Shown: positions 13,001-64,000, numbered from the stretch's first letter. The stretch is 64,000 nt of DNA from Anaerolineales bacterium (GCA_026996855.1 JALWJZ010000016.1:567-64566); one strand, 5' to 3'. Notes: generated by a model from the letters alone, not told the origin. Numbers and translations: made by a program.

Positions 13001-13520
13001 GGGCGGCACAAAGCCGCCCCTTTGTGCTGCCACTTCACCTTCACCAGCACCATCCGCACCACGGTGTGGTTTTTGAAAACATCGGTGGCCTCGTCGTACG
13101 CACCTCAGGTGAGCAGGGTGGGCCAGGCGTAGCCGGAAAAGTAGCGGCTTTCATGGCCGCTACTTTTTCCCTATCAGCACCGCCCGCACCACCACGTGGT
13201 TCTTGAAACCGCCCGTGATTTCGTCGTACTGGCCGTAGGTGAGCAGGGTGGGCCAGGCGTAGCCGGAAAAGTAGCGGCTTTCATGGCCGCTACTTTTTCC
13301 CCATCAGCACCGCCCGCACCACCACGTGGTTCTTGAAACCGCCCGTGGCTTCGTCGTACTGGCCGTAGGTGAGCAGGGTGGGCCAGGCGTAGCCGGAAAA
13401 GTAGCAGCTTTCATGGCCGCTACTTTTTCCCCATCAGCACCGCCCGCACCACCACGTGGTTCTTGAAACCGCCCGTGGTTTCGTCGTACTGGCCGCAGGT
13501 GAGCAAACTGGGCCAGGTGT
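13001..13520 (-). repeat. four tandem 130-bp orphan modules, each the last 33 codons of the sortase domain plus stop plus terminator hairpin
   Basis: Exact 130-bp period: ggccaggcgt/ggccaggtgt at 13121, 13251, 13381 and 13511, then aaccaggtgt at 13641 in the intact gene. A fifth unit (13521-13650) is the real 3' end of the 13550-18673 gene. Confidence 0.9.
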
Positions 13521-13549
13521 AGCCGGAAAAGTAGCGGCTTTCATGGCCG

Positions 13550-16500
13550 CTACTTTTTCCCTATCAGCACCGCCCGCACCACCACGTGGTTTTTGAAACC
13601 GCCCGTGGCTTCGTCATATTGCCCACAGGTGAGCAAAGTCAACCAGGTGTAGCCGTCGTCTATCGGCTCCAGGGGCCAGGTGGCATGGGGCGGCACGTAG
13701 CGCACCTGCCGCACCTGGTACTCGTACACCGTGCCGTACACATGCACTCGGATGATGTCGCCCCAGCGCAGGGTGTGAATCTGCGCGAAGGGGCCGGGCA
13801 GGCCCGAAGGCAGCCAGTTGTGCGCGGTGAGCACGCTGTTCCCCTGCCAGCCGGGGAAGGCGGTGTTGGTCATCCAGGCCACATCGGTCAGCCAGGTGAG
13901 GTCCGCGGTGGGCTCGACACCCACGACTGGCGCCTCCACGCCCAGGCGGGGGATTTCCACCCACACCGGTCCCAGGTTCTGGTAAGGCAGCCGCGCCGGC
14001 GCGGCCGGGATGCGGGTCACCCGGCCCGGCGCGAAGCCCGTCTTGGGCAGGGGCGGCGGATAGGCCCGGGTGGGGTCGTCCGGCTCCGGCGTGGTGGGGT
14101 CGTCGGTGAGGGCAGGGGTGTCGTGGTCCACGTTGGCGTCGCCGGAGCCGACGGTGCCATCGCCGTTCTCGTCCCAATGGGCCAGGCCCTGGTTTTCCAC
14201 GTAGGCCGGTGCTCCCTCTACCTCGGTCTGGAAGGAGACGACCAGCGCATGGGCCGCGTCATGGGGATCGGTCACGCCCGGGTCCGGCGCGAGGTCGGCT
14301 TCTACTTCAATGTGTCCCGTCGTTGTATTGTAGGTGCAAACGTGCACCACGGTGGCGCCCTGCCCGGTGCAGGTCAAACTCCCGGGCACGTAGCGGGTGT
14401 TGGCCGGAATGGGGTCCGAAATCTGCACCCGCAAAGTTGTGGCGTTGCTGTTGTTCACCCATATCATTCGCCATATCAGCAGGGGCCAACCGTCATCGTC
14501 CACCGTTTTCCAACTCTCGGGTGGGTCGAAGAGGGTGGTTGCTTGAGCGGTCGCGTAATCGTCTTCGCGTGGGTCCCAGTTTCCCGGTGTGCTATCGGGG
14601 TCGGGTTGGTCGGCCGCGGTGATCTCGGCCACGTTGAGGTGCTCCCCGGCCCGGACCGTGGCCTGGAAGGTCAGGGCAACGCTTTCCCCGGGGTTCAGTC
14701 GGTCCACGGTCCAGCGCAGAATGGGCGCGGCGCTCTCGTCGGGGGTGATGACCGCTCCGGTGCTGCCGGGGTCGCCGCCGATGCTGCCGACGACGTAGGT
14801 GTAACCGTTGGGCAGGCGGTCCTCCACCTGCACCTGGGTGGCGTCGGAAGGCCCGTCGTTGCGCAGGGTGAGGGTGAACGTCACGGTGTCGCCGGGCTCC
14901 GCGGTGGTGGGCGTCACGCGCTTGGTCAGGCTCAGGTCCGCGCTCTGGGCCACCGCGGTGTCTTCGCTGGCGGTGTTGTTGTCCGTGTTCGGGTCGGGGG
15001 TGGTGGCGCTGACCTGGGCGGTGTTGGTCAGGGTGCCGGTGGCGCTGCTGCTCACCTGCACGGTGACCTGGCAACTGGCATGGGCGCCGTTCGCCAGGCT
15101 GCCCACGTTCCAGGTCCAGGTGGCGCCGCTCACGGAGCCACCGCAGGTGTCGCTCTGGTAAGAGACGTCCGCGGGCAGGGTGTCGGTGACGGTAACGCTG
15201 CTGGCATCGCTGGGGCCGTGGTTGGTCACGGTGAGGGCGTAGGTGAGGGTGCTGCCGGCGGTCACGGGGTCGGGGCTATCGGTTTTGGAAATGCTCAGGT
15301 CCGCGGCGGCCTGAATGGTGAGGACGTAGTCCTCCACTTCCCCATCTCGCATGGCCCCTGTGGGAGCCGAAGCGTTCAAGTTGGGGTCGGTGGAAAGGCG
15401 CAGGCGCAGGTAGGTATCGCCGGCCACCAGGCCGGAAAGGCCGCTCCAGGTCAGGGTCACGGTGCCCGCGGTGCCGTTGGGCACGGTCTGGCTCGCGGCC
15501 TCGGCGGGCTCGAAGGTGCCGTCCCGGTCGAAGTCCACCCAGCCCACCAGGGTGGCGTCCCGGCCCGTGTTGTTGGTGACCTGCACATCCAGGCTGTAGG
15601 AGGTCATGCCCTGGTGCAGGGGCGGCAGGGTGCTCACGCCGTCTTCGTCGTCGATGCCCGTTCGGTCGTCGCCGTCCGCGTTGGGGCCGTGGAGCGCGGG
15701 GTTTTCGCTGTCGGGCGGCGCGGCGCCCAGGTGCAGACCGCCCACCACGCCGTGGGCCGGATCGCCATAGCCCGCGGGCGCGTCGCCCCGGTCGCTGGTG
15801 ACCGCAATGTTGGGCCCGAACTCCGAAGTATTGCCGTCCGCGTCGGTGGCCGTGGTGGTGATTTCATCACCCAGACTCAGACCGCTCACGCCGGTAATGG
15901 TGCAGGCGAAGGCCCCGTTGGTCCCCAGAGTCACCGTGCAGGAACCCAGGTACTCGGCGCCCTCGCCGTGGGGCACGCGCTGGCCGTCCCCGGCTTCCAC
16001 CTCGCCGTCTTGGTTCGCGGGGTCGTTGTCGGCCTTGAAGACCTCGAGGGTGAAGGTGCCGCTGAGCCATTGGGCGGCCCGGTTGCTGCCGATGTAGCCC
16101 CACAGGTGCAGATCGGTGCCCACCAGGACCGCAGAGGTTAGGATGGGGTAATCCACCCCCCGGTTGCCCAGGTCGGGGTCCAGCGCGCCGTCGTTGGCCG
16201 TGACTCCGTCCCCCGGAGGTGCACTGGGGCTGCGGTTGGCCAGGTCGATACCCAGGTGGGCGTTGTCGTACACATGGTTTTGAGTCAGGGTGTTGCCGTG
16301 GGCGGCACGGTCTTCGGTGTTCACATAGATGCCCACGGTATTTCCGTACACCAGGTTCTTGCGCACGGTCACGCCCGAGGCGCCCTTGCGAATCATGATG
16401 CCGGCCAGGGCCGCGCCGTAACTGGTATTGTTCTCGATGAGGGTGTTGGTGGGCGGCTGGCCCGCGGAGCGGGAACCCACCTCGATGTTGCTTCCGCCCC

Positions 16501-18673
16501 CGTCGAAACCGCCATCGGTGGTTTGGTTGTACACCAGGTTGTAGCGCACCACGGAGTTGACGCCGTCCATATCGATGCCGTCGTGGGAGTCGGAGCGCCA
16601 GCCGTTGTGGGCCACCTCGTTGTATTCCACCAGCAGGGCGCTGTTGTTGAGGATGCCCAGGATGCCGCTGCGTCCGTTGTAGGCCACCAGGTTGTAGCGG
16701 GCAATCAGGTTGTACCGGCCCACGGGCGGCGGCGAAGAAGGTGAACGTTGCCGGATGCCGAAGTCCTGATTCTTCAACGCGTCGGGGGTGGGTGCGGTGC
16801 CGTCGGCCCGAGGCCCGACAAAGGTGTGTTCCACCACCCGGTCGGTGCCCGAACCGCCGTTGAAGGTGAGCGCGTCGTCCGCGTTGTACACGCTCAGGTG
16901 GCGGAGCACCACGCGAGAGGCGTTCCCGGCCACGGTGAAGGGGTCGCTGTCGTTGGCGTTGATTTCCAACTCTTTGCGCTGGAATTGGGGGAAGGGGACG
17001 GCATCCACGCCCACGGTGCCGCCGCTGCCCACCTGACCGGGGTTGGTGTCGCGCGTGGTGGTGCCATCGTCGTATTCGTAGGCGGTGCCGTCCACGGTGG
17101 TGTCGTGGTCCAGGATGACGGGCAGGCCACCGAGTTGCAGGTCCACCCGCCACCAGGCCCCGCCGCTGCCGCCGGCGTTGGTGCTCACCGTGGGCACGAA
17201 GTGCATGGCGTTGGCCCCGGCGATGGCGTTGGCGTTCTGGACGAACTGGCGCAGGCAGCCCTGGCAGGTGCGATCCGCAGCGGGGTCGTCGTCCCGGTCG
17301 TTCACGTTGGTCACCACGTTGAAGGAGAAACCGAAGTCCAGGCCGCTCACATCGGCGCTGGAAACCACCACCTTGGCGATGTGCTCCGCGCTTTCCAGGG
17401 TGGTGGCATCGTCGGAGGTGCTCCCCCGGCGCCCTCCCATGCAAGGCCCGGCCGAGGTGCGCACGTAAGGGTCGCCCGCACCCAACAGGCCGTCGGGGTT
17501 GGCGCAGTAGGCCCCCGCGGGACCGTAGGTTTGCTCGGCCCACACGTCACCCTGGTCGTAGCCGGTGTTGAAGCCGGCGTTGGGGGCGATGGTTTTGGAA
17601 TCCACCACCAGCCAGTAGGTGGCATTGGGGGCCGCGCCCAGGGCGAAAGAGCCGTCGCTGCCCGTCGTGGTCTGCGCGTGCAGCGGGTCCCCCGCGTCGG
17701 GCTGGCCGTCGCCGTCGTCCTGGAACAGAAGCACCTGCACATTGGGACGACCGATGCCATCGCCCAGGTTCCCATCGCCGTTGGGGTCTTCGTACACCCG
17801 GCCCTGCAGGGCAACCGGCTCGAAGTTGTACAGCACGTCATCCGTGGGACCAAAGGCGATGCGGAGACCGTCCACGAACATGCGCACGTCGCCGTTCCAG
17901 CCGGAGCCCACACCGACTTCCACACCCAGAACATAGGTCCGGCCCTGGCTCAAATCGGGAGGCGTGGGATCGCCCGGCAGGCCCGTTACGGGCCCGGACA
18001 GCCATTCCGGCAGGCTCGTATCGTAGTTCTGGACCGCGCCGGAGGCCGTCCCCGGGCCGGGGTCGCAATCCATGCAATACATCCAGAAATCGGCCTGGCG
18101 CAAATCGATGGTGCGTTGCACCCATACGTCTTCGGGAATGGGGGTAAAGGTGCCCCAATCTTGATAGACCTCTTCGTAAATCAAAAGGCCATAGGTGTCG
18201 TCTTGGGGGTTCGTGGGCGTGTTGCCGTCGTTGTACCAATACAGTTTGAGGGGTGGGTGAAAATGGGAAGCCACCGTGGTGCCGGCCGAGGCGCGGTAGT
18301 ACGCGTAGGCCAGGTGGCTCAGGGTATCCAGCCGCCGACCGGGGAAGTCCACCCCAGGCGTGCCGGGATCTTCCCAAATCAGGCGGAAATCCACCTTGTC
18401 CTGGCCGGGCGTGGTGAAATGCGTGACGAATTCCAGGGAACCCAAAGCGGGTGAAAGGGCGGTGTAGGGCGTGGCCCCGGAAAGGAAGGAGTCGGAATCG
18501 GCCCGTTTGTTGGCCTGGGTCCAGCCATGAGGGTTCGAGGGCGACACCACAATTTGTGTAGGGGCGGAAGCGGGGCGCAGAGGCGGTGTTGGGGCGCTTG
18601 AAACCAGAACGCTTGCGACGCCCAACCACCAGGCTCCAAGGCCCAGCCAGAGCAAAACCGCACGTTTTGCCAT
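13550..18673 (-). CDS. giant secreted surface protein: signal peptide, SdrD/Cna-B-like, parallel beta-helix (PbH1), GEVED, two DUF11 repeats, LPKTG, C-terminal sortase domain
   Basis: MAKRAVLLWLGLGAWWLGVASVLV signal peptide, NLVAYNG..YNEVAHNG..YNLVYNQ..NLVYGNT beta-helix repeats, MRDGEVEDYVL, and DLSISKTDSPDPV../DLSLTKRVTP.. DUF11 repeats. SD is GAGGAGGAGGG. Confidence 0.9.
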   Translation of the reverse strand: MAKRAVLLWLGLGAWWLGVASVLVSSAPTPPLRPASAPTQIVVSPSNPHGWTQANKRADSDSFLSGATPYTALSPALGSLEFVTHFTTPGQDKVDFRLIWEDPGTPGVDFPGRRLDTLSHLAYAYYRASAGTTVASHFHPPLKLYWYNDGNTPTNPQDDTYGLLIYEEVYQDWGTFTPIPEDVWVQRTIDLRQADFWMYCMDCDPGPGTASGAVQNYDTSLPEWLSGPVTGLPGDPTPPDLSQGRTYVLGVEVGVGSGWNGDVRMFVDGLRIAFGPTDDVLYNFEPVALQGRVYEDPNGDGNLGDGIGRPNVQVLLFQDDGDGQPDAGDPLHAQTTTGSDGSFALGAAPNATYWLVVDSKTIAPNAGFNTGYDQGDVWAEQTYGPAGAYCANPDGLLGAGDPYVRTSAGPCMGGRRGSTSDDATTLESAEHIAKVVVSSADVSGLDFGFSFNVVTNVNDRDDDPAADRTCQGCLRQFVQNANAIAGANAMHFVPTVSTNAGGSGGAWWRVDLQLGGLPVILDHDTTVDGTAYEYDDGTTTRDTNPGQVGSGGTVGVDAVPFPQFQRKELEINANDSDPFTVAGNASRVVLRHLSVYNADDALTFNGGSGTDRVVEHTFVGPRADGTAPTPDALKNQDFGIRQRSPSSPPPVGRYNLIARYNLVAYNGRSGILGILNNSALLVEYNEVAHNGWRSDSHDGIDMDGVNSVVRYNLVYNQTTDGGFDGGGSNIEVGSRSAGQPPTNTLIENNTSYGAALAGIMIRKGASGVTVRKNLVYGNTVGIYVNTEDRAAHGNTLTQNHVYDNAHLGIDLANRSPSAPPGDGVTANDGALDPDLGNRGVDYPILTSAVLVGTDLHLWGYIGSNRAAQWLSGTFTLEVFKADNDPANQDGEVEAGDGQRVPHGEGAEYLGSCTVTLGTNGAFACTITGVSGLSLGDEITTTATDADGNTSEFGPNIAVTSDRGDAPAGYGDPAHGVVGGLHLGAAPPDSENPALHGPNADGDDRTGIDDEDGVSTLPPLHQGMTSYSLDVQVTNNTGRDATLVGWVDFDRDGTFEPAEAASQTVPNGTAGTVTLTWSGLSGLVAGDTYLRLRLSTDPNLNASAPTGAMRDGEVEDYVLTIQAAADLSISKTDSPDPVTAGSTLTYALTVTNHGPSDASSVTVTDTLPADVSYQSDTCGGSVSGATWTWNVGSLANGAHASCQVTVQVSSSATGTLTNTAQVSATTPDPNTDNNTASEDTAVAQSADLSLTKRVTPTTAEPGDTVTFTLTLRNDGPSDATQVQVEDRLPNGYTYVVGSIGGDPGSTGAVITPDESAAPILRWTVDRLNPGESVALTFQATVRAGEHLNVAEITAADQPDPDSTPGNWDPREDDYATAQATTLFDPPESWKTVDDDGWPLLIWRMIWVNNSNATTLRVQISDPIPANTRYVPGSLTCTGQGATVVHVCTYNTTTGHIEVEADLAPDPGVTDPHDAAHALVVSFQTEVEGAPAYVENQGLAHWDENGDGTVGSGDANVDHDTPALTDDPTTPEPDDPTRAYPPPLPKTGFAPGRVTRIPAAPARLPYQNLGPVWVEIPRLGVEAPVVGVEPTADLTWLTDVAWMTNTAFPGWQGNSVLTAHNWLPSGLPGPFAQIHTLRWGDIIRVHVYGTVYEYQVRQVRYVPPHATWPLEPIDDGYTWLTLLTCGQYDEATGGFKNHVVVRAVLIGKK
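13553..14035 (-). other. sortase catalytic domain (in cis, last 161 aa of the giant protein)
   Basis: His in NSVLTAHN, TLxTC-type Cys in WLTLLTC (codon 13625-13627), Arg in HVVVRAV. No hydrophobic anchor between LPKTG and the domain. Confidence 0.8.
14036..14050 (-). other. LPXTG sorting motif (LPKTG) inside the giant ORF
   Basis: Reverse strand ctg ccc aag acg ggc, in the context PPLPKTGFAPGRV. Confidence 0.85.
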
Positions 18674-29417: not shown

Positions 29418-29437
29418 GGTTGCACCTCCTTTGGGGG

Positions 29438-29535
29438 AGTGGTCAGTGAACAGGAGTGAGGGGTGAGCAGTCAGCAGTGGGCAGTCAGCGAACTGCCGAC
29501 CGCAGACCGCGGACTGCCGGCTGCTGATTGCCGAC
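29438..29535. repeat. heptamer tandem array (14 units) in the ilvC-leuA spacer
   Basis: agtggtc agtgaac .. agcagtc agcagtg ggcagtc agcgaac tgccgac cgcagac cgcggac tgccggc tgctgat tgccgac. Internal hairpin 29475-29485 / 29494-29504. Confidence 0.9.
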
Positions 29536-29539
29536 CGCG

Positions 29540-30576: not shown

Positions 30577-30680
30577 GTGGGGATGTGGAATGAATGGGGA
30601 TATGCGAATGAGCGGATATGCGAATGGGCGGATGAGCGAATATGCGAATATGCGGATATGCGAATGGGCGGATGGGTGGA
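30577..30680. repeat. octamer tandem array (about 13 units, T[AG][TG]GCG[AG]A) upstream of ilvC
   Basis: tatgcgaa tgagcgga tatgcgaa tgggcgga tgagcgaa tatgcgaa tatgcgga tatgcgaa tgggcgga tgggtgga. Confidence 0.9.
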
Positions 30681-30693
30681 AGGACGGCGTTGT

Positions 30694-40132: not shown

Positions 40133-41311
40133 TTATTCCTCGATGGGCCAACCGGTGGGGATTTCACCGGCCTCCAGGCCCTTGCGGATTTCCTCCAACT
40201 TGTCCTTCACTTCCTGCGGGATGGCGTCTTCAAAGTCGTGGAAGGGGGCCAGGCCCACGCCGCCGTAGTAATTGCCCGCAGGGAAGTTGCCTTCCTTGGC
40301 CATCTTGATGAGGTCGAACACACCGGGGGTGATGAGTTTCATGGCGCTGGTCACCAGGCAGGGCCGGGCCTCGGGCACGGTGTACCACTGGTCGGTGTCC
40401 ACGCCGATGCAGTACACCTCTTTGCCGGCCTTGGCCGCTTCGGCCACTTCGATGAGCGCGCCATTGCCCGTCTTGCCGCCGGCGCCGAAGATGACGTCAT
40501 AGCCCTGGTCGATGAGCTGTCGCGCGGTGGCCGCGCCCCACTCAGGGTCGGTGAAGGCCACGTCCAGACCGCCGGGGTGGTAGATGACCTTGGCTTCCAC
40601 GTTCTCGTTCACGTACTTGGCACCATTGATATAGCCGGTGCCGAAAGCCTTCACGGGCGGCACCAGGTCCGTGCCCAGCACGCCGGCAATCTTGTTGGTC
40701 TTGGTAATCATGCCTGCCAGCGCGCCGGCTAGGAAGCCCGCGCGGTCCTCGTGGAAGATGAGGCCGGCCACGTTGGGCAGGTCGTTGCCCGTGTCATCGT
40801 CCACGGCCCAGGCCTGGAATTGGTCCACACCGATGAAGTAGACCTCGGGGAATTCCTTGGCCATGGTTTGGGTGGCTTCGCCCAGGGCAAAGCCCACGGT
40901 CACGATGACGTCGAAGCCGTTCTCCGCGAAGAGGCGAATGTTGGCCTCGTAGTCCTTGGGGTCCTTGGTCTCGATGTAATCCACATAAGCCCCCAGTTCT
41001 TCTTTGGCCTTGAGCACGCCTTCCCAGGCCGACTGGTTGAAGGACTTGTCGTCGATTTCACCCACGTCGGTCACCAGGCCCACGCACAGCACGTCGGGAC
41101 TGGCGCAATCGGGCATTTCGCCTTCTTCCGCGGCTTCGGTGGGTTCTTCGGTGGCCTTGGGAGCCTCTTCGGTCATGGCCGGCGCCTCGGTGGCTTTGGG
41201 GGCTTCTTCGGTCATGGCCGGGGCTTCGGTGGGCGTCGGTGTGGCCTTCTCGCAGGCGGCCAGCCCCAGGGCCAGCGCCAACACGGTCAGAAGAATCATC
41301 CACTTGCGCAT
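40133..41311 (-). CDS. BMP family (PnrA/Med-like) ABC transporter substrate-binding lipoprotein
   Basis: Lipobox LGLAAC, with GLVTDVGEIDDKSFNQSAWEG..GVDQFQ. SD is GAAGGAGGAG. Confidence 0.85.
   Translation of the reverse strand: MRKWMILLTVLALALGLAACEKATPTPTEAPAMTEEAPKATEAPAMTEEAPKATEEPTEAAEEGEMPDCASPDVLCVGLVTDVGEIDDKSFNQSAWEGVLKAKEELGAYVDYIETKDPKDYEANIRLFAENGFDVIVTVGFALGEATQTMAKEFPEVYFIGVDQFQAWAVDDDTGNDLPNVAGLIFHEDRAGFLAGALAGMITKTNKIAGVLGTDLVPPVKAFGTGYINGAKYVNENVEAKVIYHPGGLDVAFTDPEWGAATARQLIDQGYDVIFGAGGKTGNGALIEVAEAAKAGKEVYCIGVDTDQWYTVPEARPCLVTSAMKLITPGVFDLIKMAKEGNFPAGNYYGGVGLAPFHDFEDAIPQEVKDKLEEIRKGLEAGEIPTGWPIEE
41147..41224. repeat. 39-nt tandem duplication within the lipoprotein linker (EAPAMTEEAPKAT x2)
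   Basis: 41147-41185 and 41186-41224 are near-identical. Confidence 0.8.
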
Positions 41312-51544: not shown

Positions 51545-52954
51545 TCACGATGCCGGGAAAAGTTCCTCCACCGCGCGCTTCGCCTGGGCAATCACATCCG
51601 GGATGCCTACTCCCTGGTAGGCGTTGCCCACCAAGTGCAAGCCGGGCCATTGAGAAGCACGCTGGAAGATGGCTGCCACTCGCTCCCCATGGCCCAGGGT
51701 GTACTGGGGCAGGGCCGGCCGCCATCGAAACACCCATGCTCGCTCTGGTTCCCCGGTGATGCCCATGGTCTCCCGCAATTCCTGGCGGGTCAGGGCCAGG
51801 AGGTCTTCCTCCGGCCAGGAGGCCACCTCGTCCGCGCCGGCCCGGCCGAAGAAGCATCGCAGCAATACTTTCCCTGCTGGCGCTCGGTGAGGAAACTTGC
51901 TGGAGGTCCACGAACAGGCCAGCAAAGGCCTGCCTTCCACCCGGGGAACCACGAAGCCCGAGCCCTCCAGGGAATGGGGGACCTGGCTGCGGTCGTAAGC
52001 CACGGAGACGATGACCGAAGCCGCGTAGGGAATTTCGGCCAACAGGTGGGCCAGGTCGGGGTCGAAGTCCTCCACCAGGGGTGCGGCCGCGTGGGCCGGT
52101 GTGGCCACCACCACGTGCTGGGCCTCCAGCGCGCCGTCGTCCAGGTATACCCGCCAGCGTCCCTGGTCCAGGGGTTCCAGGCGGGTGACCTTCATGCCCA
52201 GGTGCAGGTCCGCGAGGCCCTGCAGCCGTGCGACCAGCGCTTCCACCATGCGCCCCAGGCCGGTGCGCAGGGTGACGAAGGGGGTATAACGTGGACGAAA
52301 GCCGTTGGGATGGCGCTTTCTCTGACGCGTTCGATGCAGCAAGCCTCGCAACAGGCTGCCATATTGGCGTTCCAGTTCCAGCAGTTGGGGGTACGTGGTC
52401 CGCAGGCTGAGTTGTCGGGCATCGCCGGCGTAAATTCCCGCGAATAAAGGCTCGACCAAGCGCTCGAAGACCTCCCGGCCCAGGTGTCGGGTGACGAATT
52501 CGGCCACGGAAACGTCCTGGCCATCGGGCGTCCGATGGGTCTGCACCAGATTCCAGGCGGCTCGCAGCTTCCCCCGCCAGGAGAGCAGGAAGGTGCGAAA
52601 CAGGGGTCCCAGCCGCGCGGGGATCATCAGGGTCAGACCTTCGGGAAAGGGGTGCAGTCTGCCTCGAAAGAAAATGAAAGCCCGCCGACCGGGCGCGGTG
52701 CCCATGATTTCGTCTTCCAAACCCAGGTCCTGCCACAGGGCCAGACCAGCGGGCTTGAAGGAGAGGATGCTGTCGGGCCCGCCTTCCACGATGAAGCCCC
52801 CTTCCCGCACCGTGCGAATGACGCCGCCCCAGCGGTTCGAGGCTTCCAGCACGTGCAAATGCAAGGGGCGGCCCTGGCTCCGGGCCTTTTCCAGGAGAAA
52901 ATAGGCGGCACTCAGCCCACCGATGCCGCCGCCGATAATCGCGACCGTGGTCAT
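51545..52954 (-). CDS. hemY: coproporphyrinogen/protoporphyrinogen oxidase (HemY/CgoX)
   Basis: VAIIGGGIGGLSAAY..GGVIRT..GGPDSIL..GVGIPDVI. ATGA overlap with the PIN gene stop. Confidence 0.9.
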   Translation of the reverse strand: MTTVAIIGGGIGGLSAAYFLLEKARSQGRPLHLHVLEASNRWGGVIRTVREGGFIVEGGPDSILSFKPAGLALWQDLGLEDEIMGTAPGRRAFIFFRGRLHPFPEGLTLMIPARLGPLFRTFLLSWRGKLRAAWNLVQTHRTPDGQDVSVAEFVTRHLGREVFERLVEPLFAGIYAGDARQLSLRTTYPQLLELERQYGSLLRGLLHRTRQRKRHPNGFRPRYTPFVTLRTGLGRMVEALVARLQGLADLHLGMKVTRLEPLDQGRWRVYLDDGALEAQHVVVATPAHAAAPLVEDFDPDLAHLLAEIPYAASVIVSVAYDRSQVPHSLEGSGFVVPRVEGRPLLACSWTSSKFPHRAPAGKVLLRCFFGRAGADEVASWPEEDLLALTRQELRETMGITGEPERAWVFRWRPALPQYTLGHGERVAAIFQRASQWPGLHLVGNAYQGVGIPDVIAQAKRAVEELFPAS

Positions 52955-53412
52955 GATGCGCCTTCCTCACCCAGAAGGTGGACATGGGGGAAATGGGGCC
53001 GCACCAAGCGGGCCAGCCGACGGTCTGCCGTCCAGAAAGGGGCCTGAAGACGCCGGGCCAGAGCCAGGTAATGGGCGTCGTATGTCGCGGGCAATCGCCA
53101 CTGGTGGGCTAGACGCAGGGCCTCCTGGTGGAGTTCCGGGTACGTCACCAGGTCGATGTCCAGACGCAACGCCGTTTCCAAGACCTGAAGGGCGCGCTCC
53201 AGGGAGAACAAATCTGCCCTCACATATCGGTAAACAGCATTGGAAATCTCGAAGAACATCAACGGCGGAGCCACCAGCCTTCGGCCTTCCTTTTGCCACC
53301 TGACCCAAAGACGGTCGGCGACTGGGCCTTCTTTTGAGTCAACCAACATCCGGACAACAAAACTGGCATCAAGGCAGATGGTCGAAGCCGAGGGCTTCCA
53401 TGATCTGAGCAT
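52951..53412 (-). CDS. PIN-domain toxin (VapC-like)
   Basis: Acidic residues in CLDASFVV, FFEISNA, TYDAHYLALA and FWTADRRL. Overlaps the antitoxin 3' end. Confidence 0.75.
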   Translation of the reverse strand: MLRSWKPSASTICLDASFVVRMLVDSKEGPVADRLWVRWQKEGRRLVAPPLMFFEISNAVYRYVRADLFSLERALQVLETALRLDIDLVTYPELHQEALRLAHQWRLPATYDAHYLALARRLQAPFWTADRRLARLVRPHFPHVHLLGEEGAS

Positions 53413-53698
53413 CGCGTTCCTCCCGCATTTGCCGAATGATTTCTTCAGGTGGAGGAAGTTGTCGGTCCCCCAGTTCTTTGCGTATTTGCGCACGCAAGGC
53501 CAGAATCCGCTCCAGGGTTTCCTCCCAGGCGGGTCGGGCTTCTCCCCCTTGCAAACGGCGATAGGCTTCATAGGACAGCATCACCACATAGGGCTGGCCG
53601 CTTCGGGCCACGATGATGACGTCCCCCTGTTCCGCGGCGCGGCGCATCCATTCGCCCAGCCGAATTCGGGCCTCGGTTGCACTGATAACCCGTTCCAT
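53369..53698 (-). CDS. Phd/YefM family antitoxin
   Basis: ISATEARIRLGEWMRRAAEQGDVIIVARSGQPYVVMLSYEAY. Confidence 0.8.
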   Translation of the reverse strand: MERVISATEARIRLGEWMRRAAEQGDVIIVARSGQPYVVMLSYEAYRRLQGGEARPAWEETLERILALRAQIRKELGDRQLPPPEEIIRQMREERDAQIMEALGFDHLP

Positions 53699-53765
53699 AA
53701 CACGCCTCCAATCGATTAATGCATGGCCTGCTTCCAGTATAGCGGAAAAACGTCCGGTGATTCCC

Positions 53766-54854
53766 TCATTCCAGTGCGCGGGCAGCCGTGCGCACCATTT
53801 CGCCCAATGCGGTGATAAAGGCTGGGTCGTCGTTCAAAGACTCGGTGCGGCGCACCTGGACGCCCAAAGTGCGGGCCCGTTGTTGCAATTCGATGTCAAT
53901 GTCGTACAGGATTTCCACATGGTCACACACGAATCCAATGGGCACGACCAGGACCTCCCGCACACCCTGCCGGGCCAGGTCTTCGACCAGGTCGCCCACG
54001 TCGGGCCCCAGCCAGGGCACGGCCGAGGCGCCTGCGCTCTGGTAGGCCACATGCCACGCGTCCAGCCCCAGGTGCTCGGCCACCCGGCGCGCGCTTTCCC
54101 GAACCTCCTTGTCATAAGGGTCGCCCTGCTCCACCACCTTTTGAGGCAGGCTGTGCGCGGTGAAGACCACCACAGGCTTACTTCCCTCCCAGGCAGATAG
54201 GGCCTCTTCCACTTTGTGAGCCACAGCCTGGATGAAGCCTGGATAGGTGGACCAACGGGTGATGAAGACGCTGGTCAGCGGTCGGCGGTGGGCCGTGGGC
54301 AGTGGGCGGTCGGTAGTCGGCGGTGGGTAGTCAACAGAAGGCAAAGAGGGGGCATCGCCCTGTGTCCACACTTTTACTTCGCATCCGACCTCAGATTGCT
54401 GACTGCTCGCTGCTGATTGCTCCCAGCCTTCTGCTTGCGTCAAAGGCCGATACCCCTGGGCTTCCAGGGCTTTTTCCAGCGCCTGCCGGTAAGCGCCGAT
54501 GCTCATACGGGAATAATGGGGGGCCATGGGCAGGGCCACAATCCGGCGAAAGCCCTGGTTCAGGATGTCCGGAAGCACTTCGTGGATGTAAGGGTGCCAG
54601 TGGCGCATGCCCACGAAGGTTTTGAAGTGCGGCCCCAGATGTTGGTGCAGCCAGGCCTCCAGCGCCCGGGCCTGGGCCTGGGTGTGCTCCAGCAGGGGGG
54701 ATTTCCCGCCGATGAGGCGGTACCGTTCCCGCACTTCTTCCACCAACTCTTGGGGTGTGGGACGACCGTGGCGCACGTCCAGTAGATAAGGTTTGACATC
54801 GTCCAGGGAAAGGGGACCCCCGTAGGCGAGCAAGAAGACGGCGGTGGGTTCCAT
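53766..54854 (-). CDS. hemH: ferrochelatase (coproporphyrin ferrochelatase type) carrying a ~55-codon repeat-derived insertion
   Basis: VFLLAYGGP..RYRLIGGKSPL..AHSLP..VPIGFVCDHVEILYDID. 362 aa, against the ~310 aa I recall as typical. Confidence 0.9.
   Translation of the reverse strand: MEPTAVFLLAYGGPLSLDDVKPYLLDVRHGRPTPQELVEEVRERYRLIGGKSPLLEHTQAQARALEAWLHQHLGPHFKTFVGMRHWHPYIHEVLPDILNQGFRRIVALPMAPHYSRMSIGAYRQALEKALEAQGYRPLTQAEGWEQSAASSQQSEVGCEVKVWTQGDAPSLPSVDYPPPTTDRPLPTAHRRPLTSVFITRWSTYPGFIQAVAHKVEEALSAWEGSKPVVVFTAHSLPQKVVEQGDPYDKEVRESARRVAEHLGLDAWHVAYQSAGASAVPWLGPDVGDLVEDLARQGVREVLVVPIGFVCDHVEILYDIDIELQQRARTLGVQVRRTESLNDDPAFITALGEMVRTAARALE
54272..54422. repeat. arm-core-arm heptamer element inside hemH
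   Basis: Left arm, 9 units (tggtcag cggtcgg cggtggg ccgtggg cagtggg cggtcgg tagtcgg cggtggg tagtcaa). Then a ~50-nt unique core. Right arm cagattg ctgactg ctcgctg ctgattg. Confidence 0.9.
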
Positions 54855-54873
54855 CGTAACCTCCGTGAATAGG

Positions 54874-54908
54874 GGATTGGTGGTCAGCCGTCAGCGGACA
54901 GCGGACTG
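54874..54908. repeat. heptamer array (5 units) across the hemE stop and hemE-hemH spacer
   Basis: ggattgg tggtcag ccgtcag cggacag cggactg. Confidence 0.8.
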
Positions 54909-56005
54909 CTTCGCTCATGCACATATTCCACGACAAAGGCCACCTGGTCCGGGTCGGTTTCGGGAAGCACACCGTGGCCCAGGTTGAAGATGTGGCCTGC
55001 CTGGCCTCGGGCTTCTGCAAGCACCGCATCCGCCTGGCGGGCCAGTACCTCCCGTGGGGCCAGCAGGGCCACCGGATCCAGATTCCCCTGGATGGCGTGG
55101 TGGCCTCCAACCGCCTCCCAGGCCGCGCCCAGGGGTACCCGCCAGTCCACGCCGATGACCTCCGCATCCAGGTCATGGAAAAGGGGTAGCAGGCCTGCGG
55201 TGCCGGTGGAAAAGTAAATTCGAGGGACGCCCGTCACTTGCAATCCCCGCAGCAGGGCCTGGACGTGGGGTTTCACATAACGGGCATAGTCCCCAGGACT
55301 CAGGGCACCGGCCCAACTGTCGAAGATTTGCACCGCCTGCGCGCCGGCGTCGATCTGGGCCTTGAGGTAATCCAGCGTGACGCGGACCAGCCGCTTCATG
55401 AGGGCGTCCCAGGCCTGGGGATGGTGGTACATCCAGCGTTTGGTCTCGACGTAATGGCGGGAACTCCCGCCCTCGATGGCATAAGAAGCCACGGTGAAGG
55501 GCGCGCCGGCAAAGCCGATAAGGGGCGTTTGGGGGGCTTCAAGCCGTACCCGGCGCACCGTCTCGAAAACGAAGCCCAGGGCTTCGTGCACGTCCACCAG
55601 GGGGAGGGTTTCCACCCGGTCCGGCGTCAGGCGGGGTTCCAATACCGGGCCGCGCCCTTTCTCAAAACGCAACCTCAGCCCCAGCGCTTCCAGTGGAAGC
55701 AGGATGTCCGCGAAGAGGATGAGGGCATCCACGCCCAGACGCAGGGGAAGCAGCGTCACCTGGGCGGCCAGGTCGGGCTCGCGCATGAGTTCCAGCAGGC
55801 CGTAGCGCTCCCGCAGCGCCCGGTATTCGGGCATGTAACGCCCGGCCTGCCGCATGAACCACACCGGCGTGTAGGGTGTGGGCTGCCGATAGCACGCGGC
55901 GAGGAAGGGGGGAAGGCGGTCGGCGGACAGCGGACGGCGGACGGCGGTCGGCTGTCGGCTGTCAGCGGACGGCGGTCGGCGGTCGGCCGTTGGCGGTTTC
56001 AGCAT
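54884..56005 (-). CDS. hemE: uroporphyrinogen decarboxylase with a repeat-encoded N-terminal extension
   Basis: TPVWFMRQAGRYMPEY..SWAGALSP. The only SD-preceded start (GAGGAGG, ATG at 56005) lies upstream of 30 array-encoded codons. Confidence 0.9.
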   Translation of the reverse strand: MLKPPTADRRPPSADSRQPTAVRRPLSADRLPPFLAACYRQPTPYTPVWFMRQAGRYMPEYRALRERYGLLELMREPDLAAQVTLLPLRLGVDALILFADILLPLEALGLRLRFEKGRGPVLEPRLTPDRVETLPLVDVHEALGFVFETVRRVRLEAPQTPLIGFAGAPFTVASYAIEGGSSRHYVETKRWMYHHPQAWDALMKRLVRVTLDYLKAQIDAGAQAVQIFDSWAGALSPGDYARYVKPHVQALLRGLQVTGVPRIYFSTGTAGLLPLFHDLDAEVIGVDWRVPLGAAWEAVGGHHAIQGNLDPVALLAPREVLARQADAVLAEARGQAGHIFNLGHGVLPETDPDQVAFVVEYVHERSSPLSADG

Positions 56006-56112
56006 TCGTGTTCCTCCTCATGCATTCGCTCACTGCTGATGGCTGACTTGCTGACTGCTGATTGCTCACTGCCGTCTGCTCACCGCTGACCGCTCACTGC
56101 TGACCGCTGACT
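55912..56112. repeat. 13-unit G-rich array, 26-nt core with the hemE SD and ATG, then 12-unit C/T-rich array
   Basis: gtcggcg gacagcg gacggcg .. (55912-56002), and ctcactg ctgatgg ctgactt gctgact gctgatt gctcact .. (56029-56112). Confidence 0.9.
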
Positions 56113-57410
56113 GCCCCAAACGCTTCCCGCGCCGCCTCCAGCGTGCGTTCCAGGTGCTCCTCCTCGTGGGCCAGGGACATGAACGCGGATTCATACTGGG
56201 AGGGCGGGTAATAGACCCCACGGGCGGCCATCTCCCAGAACCAGCGGGCGAAACGCTTCGTGTCGGCCTGGCTCACCTCTTCCCATGTGGTGGGCGCGCG
56301 GTCCAGGAAGAACACGGTGAACATGGTGCCCACGTGCTGCACGGTGACCGGGACGCCCGCCTCTTCCGCCGCCTGCGCCAGGCCCTGGGCCAGCCGTTGG
56401 GTGCGGGCTTCCAGCGTCTCCCATACCCCCGGCTCCCGCAGGGCATCCAACGTGGCGATGCCCGCAGCCATGGCCAGGGGGTTGCCCGAAAGGGTCCCGG
56501 CCTGGTACATGGGTCCTGCCGGGGCCACGTAGCGCATGATGTCTTTGGGGCCGCCGTACGCGCCCACAGGCAGCCCGCCGCCAATGACCTTGCCCAAGGT
56601 GGTGATGTCGGGCCGGACGCCATAGCGCGCCTGCGCGCCGCCCAGGGCCACCCGGAACCCCGTCATGACCTCGTCGAAGATGAGGAGCGCGCCGTAGCGG
56701 TCGCACAGCGCGCGCAGGCCCTCCAGGAAGCCCGGTTGGGGCGGCACCACGCCCATGTTTCCGGCCACCGGTTCCACGATGACCCCCGCGATGTCCTGGC
56801 CATGGGCTTCGAAAAGGGCTTCTACCGCGGCCAGGTCGTTGTAGGGTGCGGTCAGGGTGTCCTGGGTGGTGCCGGGGGTCACGCCGGGGGAATCGGGCAG
56901 GCCCAGGGTGGCCACGCCGGAGCCAGCCCGAACCAGGAGCGCGTCCACGTGGCCGTGGTAGCACCCGACGAACTTGACGACTTTCGTCCGGCCGGTGACC
57001 GCGCGGGCCAGGCGGATGGCGCTCATGGTGGCTTCGGTGCCCGAATTCACGAAGCGCACCATTTCGATGGAAGGCACCATCTCGATGACCCGCTCCGCGA
57101 GGTCGATTTCCAGGCGGGTGGGCGCGCCGTAAGACGTACCCCGTTCCGCAGCCTGCTTCACCGCTTCCACCACTTTGGGGTGGGCATGCCCCAGGATGAG
57201 GGGTCCCCAGGAGAGCACGTAATCGATGTAGCGGTTACCGTCGGCATCCCACAGGTAGGGGCCCCGGGCCTTTTCGATGAACAGGGGGACGCCGCCCACG
57301 GCGCGGAAGGCGCGGGCCGGGGAATTTACCCCACCCGGGATGACTTCCTGGGCCTTCTCGAACAGGCGTCGGGACGTCTCCACGCGTAAAGGTCGGGTCA
57401 GGGCTTCCAT
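56094..57410 (-). CDS. hemL: glutamate-1-semialdehyde 2,1-aminomutase
   Basis: [33 protein letters not shown] at 57410 follows GAAGGAGGAG. Confidence 0.95.
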
Positions 57411-57424
57411 GGTGCTCCTCCTTC

Positions 57425-57466
57425 GGCTGTCCGCCCACTGCTGACTGCTCACCGCTCACTGCCCAA
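57425..57466. repeat. heptamer array (6 units, C-rich type) across the PIN stop and hemL upstream spacer
   Basis: ggctgtc cgcccac tgctgac tgctcac cgctcac tgcccaa. Confidence 0.8.
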
Positions 57467-57940
57467 CACTGTCTCCAGGTGAAAGTCCTCGGCGAAGGGG
57501 TTGACGAAATGCACGCCTTCGATGGTGCTGCCGATAGCGAAGTCCTCGGTGAAGACCAGGGGGATTTGGTGCATCCGGGCCACGGCCCAGATTTGGGCGT
57601 CCCAGTAGGAAAAGCGGTACCGCCGCACCCCGCGTATAGCCTCCAGCACCACGGTTTCGGTAACGGGCAGCACCCGGAACGTGCGGGCCAGGTCCTCCAC
57701 CAAAGCCTGGGCCTGTTCGGGCGAGAGAGCAGGCCGGAGTTTCCGGGTGACCGTGTTGAAAAATTCGCCCAGAATCTGCGTGCTGATGATGCCCAGGCCA
57801 TGCTGTACCAGGCCTTCCAACACTTGCAAGGCACGGGCCTGCTTCTCTGGCTCGGAGCGGTCGTAGGCATACACCAGGACGTTGGTATCCAGGAAGACAT
57901 TGTTCCACTTATTTGCGGGGCCAGCGAAGACGTTCTTCAT
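57449..57940 (-). CDS. PIN-domain toxin (VapC-like)
   Basis: [37 protein letters not shown]. Confidence 0.75.
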
Positions 57941-59639: not shown

Positions 59640-60008
59640 ATGGGGCGCATGCGGTCGCATCGTGATTTGGAAGTGTGGAAGCGTTCGGCCCAATTCGCGC
59701 AGCGGATTTACCAGGTGACCGCCCACTTCCCCGACCAGGAGAAATACAACCTGACTGCGCAACTGCGGCGGGCCAGCACGTCGATTCCCGCCAACATCGC
59801 CAAAGGCCATGGACGTCGCACCGAGGGCGCGTTTGCTTTGCACCTGGATATTGCCTTGGGTTCGCTGGCGGAAATCGACACGTTCCTGTACCTGGCGCAC
59901 CATTTGGGCTATCTCTCCCAAGATGTTTACGAAGAATTGCTGAACGAACTCACCATTATCCGTCGCATGCTGTACCGCCTCTACAACCGCGTCCAATCTA
60001 ACCGCTGA
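59640..60008 (+). CDS. four-helix-bundle protein (TIGR02436 / 23S rRNA intervening-sequence protein family, Avd-like)
   Basis: RDLEVWKRSAQFAQRIYQVTAHFPDQEKYNLTAQLRRASTSIPANIAKGHGR..ALGSLAEIDTFLYLA. The start could be 59649. Confidence 0.85.
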   Translation: MGRMRSHRDLEVWKRSAQFAQRIYQVTAHFPDQEKYNLTAQLRRASTSIPANIAKGHGRRTEGAFALHLDIALGSLAEIDTFLYLAHHLGYLSQDVYEELLNELTIIRRMLYRLYNRVQSNR

Positions 60009-61143
60009 CGGCCGACGGCCGACCGCCGACCGCCGTCTGCCGTCCGCTGACTGCTGCCGGCTGATACACACACAACGGGTCCCATTCCAGCGGGTCGCCG
60101 AAGACCGCGTAAGCCCGGGCGCGAGAGCCGCCGCAGACCTTGCGATACTCGCAGTAGCCGCACTTTCCCTTGAGTTGGTCGGGGTCCCGCAGGGCGCGGA
60201 AGAGGGGGTGGTTGCGGTAGACCTCCACAGGGTGATGGGTACGCACGTTGCCCGTCACGATGGGCAGGAACCCCGCGGGATAGATTTCCCCAATGTGGGA
60301 AACGAACATGATGCCCGACCCATCCCGGATGCCGAAGCCAAAACGGAGGCGTTTGGGCATCTCTCGATTGCCTTCGGCTTTGGCCCGCTGCAAGGCCACC
60401 CGACGGTAGTGATGGGCTTCCGTAGTCTTGATGGCAAAGGGCGCTTCCTTGGCAAAGTCGTACAGCCAGTTGAGCAGGTCCTCGGCCTGTTCTGGGGTGA
60501 TGTCGCCCAGCACCTTCCCCCGGCCCACCGGGACTAAGAAGAACACGCTCCAGCGCTCCACGCCCAGGTCCACCAAAAGGCGGCCGATGTTGGGGATGTC
60601 GTCATAAGTCTCCGCGCAAACTAAGGTGTTGATTTGCAAAGGGAGACCCGCCTCCTTGGCCCAGCGAATGGCCGCAACGGTTTGTTCGAAACTCCCTGGC
60701 ACCATGCGGATGGCGTCGTGGCGCTCGGGCGTGGAGCCGTCCAAACTCACCGACATCATCCACACGCCCACGTCTTTGAAGCGGTGGACCACGTCCCGGG
60801 TCAGCGCATAGGTGCCGCTGGGGGTGATGGCAGTGAGGAAGCCCCGTTCTACCGAAGCCTGAAGCAAATCGAAGAGGTCGGGCCGCTTGAGGGGGTCACC
60901 GCCGGTGAACACGATGTGGGGCTTGGGTTCCCCGAATTCCAGGAATCTGTCCAGCAGGGCCAGACCCTCTTCGGTGGTGAGTTCCAGGGGATGGCGATGG
61001 GGCTGGGCCTCGGCCCGGCAGTGGCGGCAGACCAGGTCGCAGGCCCGGGTGACTTCCCAGTAGATGAGCATGGGTGCCTTGTGAATGTCGGGCCGCTGGA
61101 AGGCCGGGGGCCGTTTGCCGTTGGTCGGGGAAGGACGTGCCAT
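59998..61143 (-). CDS. radical SAM/SPASM protein of the AhbD (heme b synthase)-like type
   Basis: WEVTRACDLVCRHCR radical SAM cluster, and C-terminal CGYCEYRKVCGGSRARA. The last ~19 aa (AAVSGRQTAVGGRPSAVSG) are array-encoded. Confidence 0.75.
   Translation of the reverse strand: MARPSPTNGKRPPAFQRPDIHKAPMLIYWEVTRACDLVCRHCRAEAQPHRHPLELTTEEGLALLDRFLEFGEPKPHIVFTGGDPLKRPDLFDLLQASVERGFLTAITPSGTYALTRDVVHRFKDVGVWMMSVSLDGSTPERHDAIRMVPGSFEQTVAAIRWAKEAGLPLQINTLVCAETYDDIPNIGRLLVDLGVERWSVFFLVPVGRGKVLGDITPEQAEDLLNWLYDFAKEAPFAIKTTEAHHYRRVALQRAKAEGNREMPKRLRFGFGIRDGSGIMFVSHIGEIYPAGFLPIVTGNVRTHHPVEVYRNHPLFRALRDPDQLKGKCGYCEYRKVCGGSRARAYAVFGDPLEWDPLCVYQPAAVSGRQTAVGGRPSAVSG
60001..60063. repeat. 9-unit C-rich heptamer array (right arm flanking the four-helix-bundle gene)
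   Basis: accgctg acggccg acggccg accgccg accgccg tctgccg tccgctg actgctg ccggctg. Confidence 0.9.
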
Positions 61144-61161
61144 GGAAGACCTCCTTTTGAA

Positions 61162-61273
61162 GGGCCGTTGGCCGGCAGCCGTTGGCCGTTGGTGGAAAGC
61201 AGTCGGCGGTCAGCGGACGGCGGTCGGCCGTCGGCCGTCGGCTGACTGCTCACCGCTCACTGCTGACCGCCGT
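61162..61273. repeat. 16-unit heptamer array forming a near-palindrome in the hemQ / radical SAM spacer
   Basis: gggccgt tggccgg cagccgt .. cggcggt cggccgt cggccgt | cggctga ctgctca ccgctca ctgctga ccgccgt. Confidence 0.9.
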
Positions 61274-62877: not shown

Positions 62878-62891
62878 GGGATACCTCCGGG

Positions 62892-63059
62892 GAAGTGGAC
62901 AGTGGACAGTGGTCAGTGGTCAGTGAACAGTGAACAGTGGTCAGTGGCGGTGGCGGTCGGCAGTCGGCTATCTGCTGTCTGCTATCTGCTGTCGGCTATC
63001 TGCTGTCTGCTATCTGCTATCTGCTCACTGCTGACGGCTGTCCGCTGACCGCTCACTGC
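62892..63059. repeat. 24-unit heptamer array in one uninterrupted register (hemD 3' end / hemB upstream)
   Basis: gaagtgg acagtgg acagtgg tcagtgg .. agtcggc | tatctgc tgtctgc tatctgc tgtcggc .. tgaccgc tcactgc. Confidence 0.95.
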
Positions 63060-64000
63060 TTCTACCAGTCCTTCCATGGTGTACTGCTGGGCCACGGCGT
63101 GGACGGGCAGGCCGGCCTCGCGCGCGGCCCGGGCGGTGATGGGGCCGATGCACACCACCCGCACGCCGGGCGGCAGGGGCCGTCCCCCCAGGGCCTGGAC
63201 GAAGCCCTGCACCGTGGACGGGCTGGTGAAGGTCACCACGTCCACCTCGTCCAGCGGGGGCGGCGTATCGGGCGGGGCCACTAAGGTGCGGTAGGCCACC
63301 ACCTCGTCCACCTGGGCGCCCCGGCTCTGGAGGATTTCCCGCAGCGTGGGCCGGGCCCGGTCGGCCCGGGCCAGCAGGATGCGCAACCCCCGCACGTCGC
63401 CCAGGGCATCGGCCAGGGCTTCGGCCACGTAAGCCGGGGGGATGAGGTCCGGCTCCCGGCCCTGGGCCTGTAAGGCCTTCGCGGTGGCGGGGCCGATGAC
63501 GGCGATGCGGACGTCCGCGGGCACTCGCAGGCCCAGGGCCTGAAGTCGGTTCCACACGAAGCGCACGCCGTTGGCCGAGGTCAAGACCAGCCAGTCGTAC
63601 CCGCCCCGGCTCAGGCGGTGCAGGGCCTGGTCCAGGGGTCCCCAGTTTTCGGGCGGCGCGATGCGGATGGTGGGGTAGAGCACAGGCTCGTACCCTGCCT
63701 CCCGCAGGCGGGCCAGCCATGCCTCGGCCTGCTCCGGGGGCCGGGTGATGAGGACGCGGAGCGGACGGCGGTCGGCAGTCGGCAGTCGGCTGTCCGCTGT
63801 CGGCTGTCCGCTGACCGCTGCCTGCTGACCGCTGCCTGCTGACTGCGCACTGCGCACTGCGGACTGCCCACTCCGCACCTGCATCGCCAATTCCCGTCCC
63901 AACCCCTCCGCTTCCTCCATCGGGGCCTGGCCCCGGACGCGATAGGGCGTGCCGTCGGCCGCGACGTACAGGGCGGTGAGGGTGAGGGTTCCTCCCTGCA
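62982..64000 (-). CDS. hemD: uroporphyrinogen-III synthase, continuous with a HemC (porphobilinogen deaminase) C-terminus through a repeat-encoded linker; 5' partial
   Basis: LRVLITRPPEQAE..WLVLTSANGV..VTFTSPSTV is HemD. The frame stays open upstream of M at 63920 to nt 64000 (..TLTALYVAADGTPYRVRGQAPMEEAEGLGRELA, HemC-like). Confidence 0.8.
   Translation of the reverse strand, partial: QGGTLTLTALYVAADGTPYRVRGQAPMEEAEGLGRELAMQVRSGQSAVRSAQSAGSGQQAAVSGQPTADSRLPTADRRPLRVLITRPPEQAEAWLARLREAGYEPVLYPTIRIAPPENWGPLDQALHRLSRGGYDWLVLTSANGVRFVWNRLQALGLRVPADVRIAVIGPATAKALQAQGREPDLIPPAYVAEALADALGDVRGLRILLARADRARPTLREILQSRGAQVDEVVAYRTLVAPPDTPPPLDEVDVVTFTSPSTVQGFVQALGGRPLPPGVRVVCIGPITARAAREAGLPVHAVAQQYTMEGLVEAVSGQRTAVSSEQIADSRQQIADSR
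63756..63881. repeat. 18-unit heptamer array translated as the hemC-hemD linker
   Basis: gcggagc ggacggc ggtcggc agtcggc agtcggc tgtccgc tgtcggc tgtccgc tgaccgc tgcctgc tgaccgc tgcctgc tgactgc gcactgc gcactgc ggactgc. Confidence 0.9.

Follow-up and report, generated by a model that had tools for sequence, protein, structure and literature searches.

A ferrochelatase of an Anaerolineales bacterium in which an older hairpin module was probably lengthened in frame by heptamer repeats

How does a gene for an essential enzyme come to carry a stretch of repeat DNA that is apparently translated, and was this stretch inserted as a mobile element or did it grow in place? The question is raised by the ferrochelatase gene (hemH/cpfC; 53766..54854, minus strand) in the window, that is, the whole 64,000-nt stretch of DNA analysed here (G+C, 63%), whose closest relatives are metagenome-assembled genomes of Anaerolineales (Chloroflexota). 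All sequences compared in this study are metagenome-assembled genomes. The gene includes an extra segment of 165 nt (54273..54437, minus strand), which encodes the 55 residues Q140–T194 (QAEGWEQSAASSQQSEVGCEVKVWTQGDAPSLPSVDYPPPTTDRPLPTAHRRPLT). An earlier reading based on the sequence alone had described this segment as a complete arm/core/arm repeat element inserted in frame. The in-frame position within an intact gene was upheld, with an open reading frame of 362 aa and exactly 165 nt at 54273–54437, and the nature and history of the segment are considered below.

The identity of the gene is well defined. Its product matched PF00762 (Ferrochelatase) in Pfam with 287.8 bits (cut-off 27, E 1.2e-85), and the insert divided this match into two parts. 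For the product, an AF2 model had a mean pLDDT of 91.8, and Foldseek aligned it to 1doz, 1ak1 and 6sv3 with target-normalised TM values of 0.91–0.93 and E values of ca. 1e-30. These entries are the CpfC proteins of B. subtilis and L. monocytogenes, and the model shares their two-domain class II chelatase fold. Residues H234, H312, E314 and Y11 occupied invariant columns in both homologue alignments; among them, H234 and E314 corresponded to the catalytic H183 and E264 of B. subtilis and Y11 to Tyr13, and in the B. subtilis alignment AHSLP was paired with AHSLP and DHVE with DHLE. Outside the insert, the gene had a dN/dS of 0.09–0.11 against close relatives, with a dS of ca. 0.15 relative to the window. 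Its best structural matches are CpfC. The window HemH is best read as a working, putatively coproporphyrin-type ferrochelatase with a nested, lineage-specific elaboration of a loop.

The gene order around hemH is that of a haem operon, with hemL (56094–57452), hemE (54884–56005, minus strand), hemH, a toxin–antitoxin pair and a HemY/CgoX-like amine oxidase (51545–52954). The antitoxin/PIN pair (52951–53698) between hemH and the oxidase was identified by synteny with the related locus L001. The antitoxin at this site differs among the relatives, being PhdYeFM in L001 (2586–3336) and MazE-like in L005 (2164–2816), and in L002 (532–1270) an RHH_3/PIN pair is found between hemA and hemL. A megablast search of hemH against plasmids gave no match, which is uninformative.

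The insert site lies in domain I, after helix 4 and before strand 4, where the alignments to the B. subtilis and L. monocytogenes CpfC were interrupted at query positions of ca. 145 and 195. In a protein search, P0001 was identical to the window HemH and P0002 (364 aa) was 90% identical; five proteins with 67%–73% identity and lengths of 344–383 aa came next, followed, among the matches listed, by many of ca. 300–327 aa. This length range applied to most of the 120 homologues listed. In two alignments made from these homologues, Q140–T194 had no counterpart outside one small Anaerolineales clade.

Apart from the broad presumption that repeats would not be tolerated in an enzyme that the cell needs, nothing in the sequence suggests that the segment is removed from the transcript or the protein. 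Inteins begin with Cys, Ser or Thr, end with His-Asn and are well above 55 aa in size. The present segment, at 55 aa, is much too short for an intein; its first residue is Gln, it does not end in His-Asn, and a scan of 53500–56300 against Rfam gave no family match at E ≤ 1. The same architecture was found in four independent assemblies (the window, L001, L007 and L008), in which the reading frame was maintained in all four full-length alleles and the differences were only in frame. The catalytic residues and the predicted fold are also intact, and a strand encoded by the middle of the segment is predicted to be part of that fold. Excision as an intron or intein, or alternatively a pseudogene or an assembly artefact, is therefore considered very improbable.

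The flanks of the insert belong to a repeat family of this genome and are inverted relative to each other, as claimed earlier and as corroborated by TRF and by matches to repeat families. The 3′ arm (54273..54331, minus strand; family D1, TRF) is a direct-orientation array of CCGACCG-type heptamers that encodes D175–T194 as approximately three 7-aa blocks (DYPPPTT DRPLPTA HRRPLT). TRF reported a period of 7 with 7.4 copies and 77% matches, along with periods of 14, 21 and 28. The 5′ arm (54385..54420, minus strand) is an inverted-orientation array of GCAGTCA-type heptamers encoding approximately Q146–V156 (QSAASSQQSEV), and it is 83% identical to an intergenic array at 29496–29531 (family D5). 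Owing to the opposite orientation, the 5′ arm reads QSAASSQ on the gene strand and the 3′ arm reads PTADRRP-like blocks. The repetitiveness of the arms is far above chance expectation; the self-identity at lag 7 was 0.50 in the insert versus 0.22 ± 0.03 in the rest of the gene (z = 9.3), and the corresponding z values in the sister long alleles were 7.6–11.5. The core between the arms (54332..54384, minus strand), the 5′ half of which encodes G157–Q165 (GCEVKVWTQ), is unique in the window: a BLAST search of the 165-nt segment against these 64 kb revealed no second copy of the core, and the matches obtained were arm-to-array matches only. Of the proposed complete arm/core/arm element, the arms stand as heptamer arrays, but the core does not recur in the window.

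These features bear directly on the possibility that a single palindromic mobile element resembling a MITE or a Rickettsia palindromic element (RPE), bounded by a 12-nt target-site duplication, was inserted once in frame. Such an event would account for flanking arrays that are inverted and derived from a dispersed family, and in-frame palindromic insertions in Rickettsia housekeeping genes are described in PMC10969869, which cites Ogata 2000 and 2002. It would also account for the direct repeats that bound the segment. The two RPLT-encoding copies at 54438–54449 and 54273–54284 are, as first reported, 8/12 identical, and their identity in the sister genomes is 10/12 (L007) and 11/12 (L001). 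However, the right copy consists of nothing more than the two terminal units of the 3′ array. The left copy (54438..54449, minus strand; cggcctttgacg) has itself a heptamer-like “GAC” spacing with a period of 7, and it is absent in L087, which lacks the 9 nt CTGACTCAA (LTQ). The direct repeat is not accepted as a proven target-site duplication. In addition, the core is single-copy in 64 kb that contain ca. 14 arrays, and the insert has no excess folding energy of the kind expected from a hairpin formed by terminal inverted repeats. Its folding relative to shuffled sequences gave z values of +0.19 (RNA), −0.09 (DNA) and −0.87 (trimmed), so that no stable hairpin beyond those of shuffled sequence was found by RNA or DNA folding, in contrast to the intergenic inverted arrays (z of −3.7 to −4.4).

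Comparison with relatives revealed three states of this site. No insert was present in P0009 or in any of the more distant aligned homologues. A short insert of 33–37 residues between fixed anchors was present in P0004–P0008 and L009, with the pattern GY[RH]P..E...............L[TS]Y.VQ.W.......P[PS][AT]LD. The long insert was found in the window, L001, L007 and L008. In a neighbour-joining tree built without the insert columns, the insert-bearing HemH sequences formed a single clade with 100% bootstrap support, within which P0008 was the first branch (93%) and the short forms alone were monophyletic in only 2.6% of replicates. On this tree the long form is derived and nested within the short-form group, and parsimony accordingly favours one ancient short insertion with later lengthening. 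The sequence-only reading had named a homologous, non-repetitive segment of similar length in unrelated lineages as evidence against an inserted repeat element. A non-repetitive segment does occur at the same position, but it is shorter (33–37 residues) and its carriers are related lineages.

The lengths of the alleles follow a simple arithmetic. The short forms L002, L003, L004, L006 and L009 have 99 nt between the anchors, and L005 has 111 nt (+12). Relative to the 99-nt form, L001 and L007 (183 nt) are longer by 84 nt, or 4 × 21, and L008 (162 nt) is longer by 63 nt, or 3 × 21; compared with L001, L008 is without exactly one 21-nt block, PPTADRR, within the array. The window allele (177 nt) is longer by 78 nt (84 − 6), which is not a clean multiple of 21 and needs an additional 6-nt deletion. 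At the other arm, the short forms L004 and L009 have a 7-aa gap in the alignment at the 5′-arm region of the long forms. Length steps of 21 nt, a long form nested in the short-form clade and relatives with a structured 33–37-aa segment in place of an empty site all speak against a single mobile insertion, which we regard as unlikely and slightly less plausible than the repeat-born origin discussed below.

Two further candidates from the protein search were set aside. P0027 (L087) was considered as a four-block allele, but its contig enters an unrelated gene after the array (GAATTC and a new ribosome-binding site), and the right arm of L087 was left out of the counts. P0003 (L088), encoded on a contig of 1.6 kb, is missing 78 domain I residues; it is probably a mis-assembly or a dead allele and was not used. 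Both L087 (at 700–760) and L088, which come from close relatives, change abruptly at the hemH array, where the 78 missing codons of L088 end. This suggests that the heptamer repeats cause mis-assemblies or real rearrangements in these two contigs.

Structure models of the long and short forms point to an older folded module within the insert. In the AlphaFold model of P0006, which has a short insert, the pLDDT of the insert was 95–98 throughout, and residues 145–166 formed two strands, a β-hairpin (E145–155 and E158–166) ahead of the canonical strand E175–183. In the AF2 model of the window HemH, the pLDDT was < 50 at residues 143–152 and ca. 54 at 171–190, and it was 75–80 in the strand G157–Q165 (E157–165) encoded by the core. 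When read against the P0006 model, the 5′ arm is located where the short form has its β-turn, and the 3′ arm falls within the linker that joins the hairpin's second strand to strand 4. The core strand is positionally aligned to LTYxVQxW of the short-insert relatives, with the pattern L-x-Y-x-V-(Q/K)-x-W, and probably corresponds to strand two of the older hairpin. A profile of the interior of the short insert, scored against the long inserts, reached a best score of only 1.0 bit, which was equalled by 85–461 of 1000 shuffles and is not significant alone. Because sequence similarity alone is not significant, the homology of the core to the short insert is argued from position, phylogeny and the shared pattern. 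The residues encoded by the arms are likely disordered linkers, and we infer from the fold topology of this helix-to-strand connection that the insert lies on the face away from the porphyrin cleft.

Taken together, these observations are best explained by an older hairpin module whose loops were later lengthened in frame by slippage of heptamers, the resulting arrays being translated as disordered linkers; we place the probability of this reading at roughly 70%. In the first and older step, as suggested by phylogeny and models, the ancestor of the small Anaerolineales clade would have gained ca. 30 residues between helix 4 and strand 4, which fold as a β-hairpin in the models. In the second and recent step, as shown by allele comparison, genomic heptamer repeats grew in both hairpin loops in the species group of the window, with ca. 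21 nt of GCAGTCA-type units in the turn and 42–63 nt of CCGACCG-type units in the linker that precedes strand 4. As 7 and 3 have no common factor, the frame is maintained only if units are added or lost three at a time (21 nt, 7 aa), and surviving alleles would differ by 21-nt steps because of selection on an essential gene. Translation of the arrays would yield Ser/Ala/Gln-rich and Pro/Thr/Ala/Asp/Arg-rich linkers, presumably tolerated because the helix-to-strand connection lies away from the porphyrin cleft according to the fold topology. Judging from the pattern, slipped-strand mispairing is the most likely route by which the arrays grew and shrank. A single block resembling a unit, (D/G)RPP(T/A)LD (compare DRRPPTAD), already terminates the short forms, which suggests that this terminal block was the seed of the 3′ array.

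A more far-reaching history would have the whole segment begin as heptamer DNA in the common ancestor, the short forms being decayed or domesticated arrays and the long forms re-expanded ones. The addition as a whole, including the hairpin, would then be the product of a heptamer-seeding process active in these Anaerolineales, which places arrays both between genes (as paired hairpins) and inside genes. Several resemblances could be explained in this way. Weak lag-7 periodicity was detected in the short inserts of L006 (z = 4.4) and L004 (z = 2.7); L004 and L009 encode TATADGLT, which resembles the array block PTADGRPLT of L007; the RPPTLD end of the short forms is similar to the DRRPPTAD unit; and the heptamer unit family also occurs in the flanks of L001–L003 and L007–L009, short-insert genomes among them. 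On the other hand, periodicity is absent from the short inserts of L002 and L003 (z = 1.2 and 0.0), the strands of the hairpin do not resemble units, and the resemblances were spotted post hoc. An origin of the whole segment from repeats is rather unlikely. If true, one could trace a series that starts with selfish or slipping 7-nt repeats, passes via a disordered loop and ends in a structured element of an essential enzyme.

Substitution patterns in the insert were also compared with those in the rest of hemH. In the insert, dN/dS was 0.29–0.47 against close relatives, below 1 but relaxed, and dS was 0.59–1.05 relative to the window. This dS is 4–6 times that of the rest of the gene, which unit turnover or misalignment may explain. 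Judging by the inflated dS, the alignment of the insert is without strict orthology and its dN/dS is imprecise. With this reservation, the pattern fits a translated and weakly constrained insert with rapid turnover of units.

The hemH segment has partial counterparts among known repeat systems. In-frame repeat insertions in housekeeping genes have been described for RPEs of Rickettsia and for some MITEs (PMC10969869, which summarises Ogata et al. 2000 and 2002 on the RPEs). The hemH case is similar in that DNA of a repeat family with inverted symmetry lies in frame inside a conserved metabolic gene, where its translation is predicted and it is apparently tolerated because its position is compatible with the fold. 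RPEs, according to PMC10969869, are discrete elements of ca. 150 bp whose whole sequence recurs and which encode a conserved peptide. In hemH, by contrast, only the arrays of 7-nt units recur, and the core is unique in the window and probably older; moreover, the segment lacks palindrome folding, and its length changes in 21-nt steps. It acts as a coding tandem repeat, resembles RPEs only superficially and lacks the properties of a discrete mobile element. Neither a new kind of mobile element nor a new route of insertion removal is revealed by this case.

A closer comparison is with heptamer simple sequence repeats (SSRs), which PMC4679880, referring to a 2007 survey, gives as the commonest long SSR class in prokaryotes and as usually intergenic. 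The same source attributes this bias to genes readily accommodating only units with a length divisible by three, such units being those encountered in coding regions, and it notes that the TAACTGA arrays of Beggiatoaceae carry stop codons (PMC4679880). The heptamers of cyanobacterial STRRs and the TAACTGA repeats of Beggiatoaceae are of the same kind. The arms of hemH share the features of this class: their units are arranged head to tail, their copy number differs among alleles, and the same unit family is found elsewhere in the genome. The arrays of the window are likewise tandem, mostly intergenic and often located by start codons, with copy-number change presumed to result from polymerase slippage. 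They differ from known 7-nt SSRs in two respects. Heptamers, whose length is not divisible by three, are predicted to be read through in hemH and in the tails of hemE, where they change in blocks of three units, and many arrays of the window are paired in inverted orientation to give hairpins. Chloroflexus aurantiacus, which also belongs to the Chloroflexi, had the most satellites in a bacterial survey (PMC6749651). Our literature search found no paper on this ferrochelatase insertion and none specific to heptamer arrays in Anaerolineae.

Loop insertions confined to particular lineages, like tandem repeats within coding sequence, are a general phenomenon among conserved enzymes. Like other loop insertions, the extra residues of hemH lie between secondary-structure elements, evolve fast and are of low complexity; unlike them, their DNA source can be named as a genome-wide repeat family, and the steps are visible in relatives. 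Read as an older hairpin lengthened by heptamer slippage, the locus would be a natural example of how repeats with a unit length not divisible by three can build protein: only 21-nt steps survive, and they collect in the loops of a module that an essential enzyme already possessed. The stages are preserved among the relatives as no insert, a 33-residue hairpin, and the hairpin with 3 or 4 × 21 nt added. The locus could therefore help to show how loops lengthen, how disorder is tolerated and how repeats turn over in an uncultured lineage of Chloroflexota.

Heptamer arrays are not restricted to hemH. Approximately 14 were detected in the window, with more in the flanks of related loci; except for the two arms in hemH, all are intergenic, as is the array at 29.4 kb, or lie within ca. 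55 codons of a gene end. The neighbouring hemE has one at each end. An array at 54874..54909 (minus strand; family D8, from TRF and ORF translation) covers its C-terminal tail (SSPLSADG) and the stop codon, and another at 55908..55997 (minus strand) encodes PPTADRR PPSADSR QPTAVRR PLSADRL in its N-terminal tail. Upstream of the URO-D domain there is no in-frame start other than the ATG at 56005, which is preceded by a GGAGG Shine–Dalgarno sequence; from this start, the array-encoded tail makes up the first ca. 30 residues, and the Pfam domain begins at residue 33. Compared with L001, L007 and L008, the window has a tail extended by 14 aa (42 nt, or 2 × 21), which parallels the length steps in hemH. 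Arrays at 56028–56114 and 57426–57471 overlap the C-terminus and the predicted N-terminus (MSSQQWADS...) of hemL. The annotated ends of such genes are partly repeat-derived and may be mis-called. For annotators and assemblers, this calls for caution, since arrays lengthen the ends of ORFs and seem to interrupt contigs or join them wrongly.

In the intergenic spacers, a (CGGTCAG)n array is followed by a (CTGACCG)n array of opposite orientation, and such pairs form long hairpins. Relative to shuffled sequences, the folding z values of these inverted arrays were −4.4 at 29431–29538, −3.7 at 61156–61273 and −4.0 at 63757–63888; further inverted-array spacers are located at 55908–56114, 59998–60064 and 62891–63059. 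They often lie just 3′ of a stop codon and just 5′ of the next ribosome-binding site, and the hairpins may be terminator-like or mRNA-stabilising structures. The paired-array family is also present in related Anaerolineales genomes.

Repeats of other kinds were also observed in the window. At 13045–13635, a 130-nt unit, which is not a multiple of three, is repeated 4.5 times with 92% identity at and just past the C-terminus of a very long ORF on the minus strand (13550–18673). An array at 30578–30690, near the start of an ilvC-like gene, contains ca. nine copies of 8-nt units (ATATGCGA / ATGGGCGG) and represents a second short-unit repeat family, distinct from the heptamers. Finally, a 39-nt unit repeated 2.2 times with 89% matches at 41148–41232, within a minus-strand ORF, is probably a coding duplication of 13 aa.
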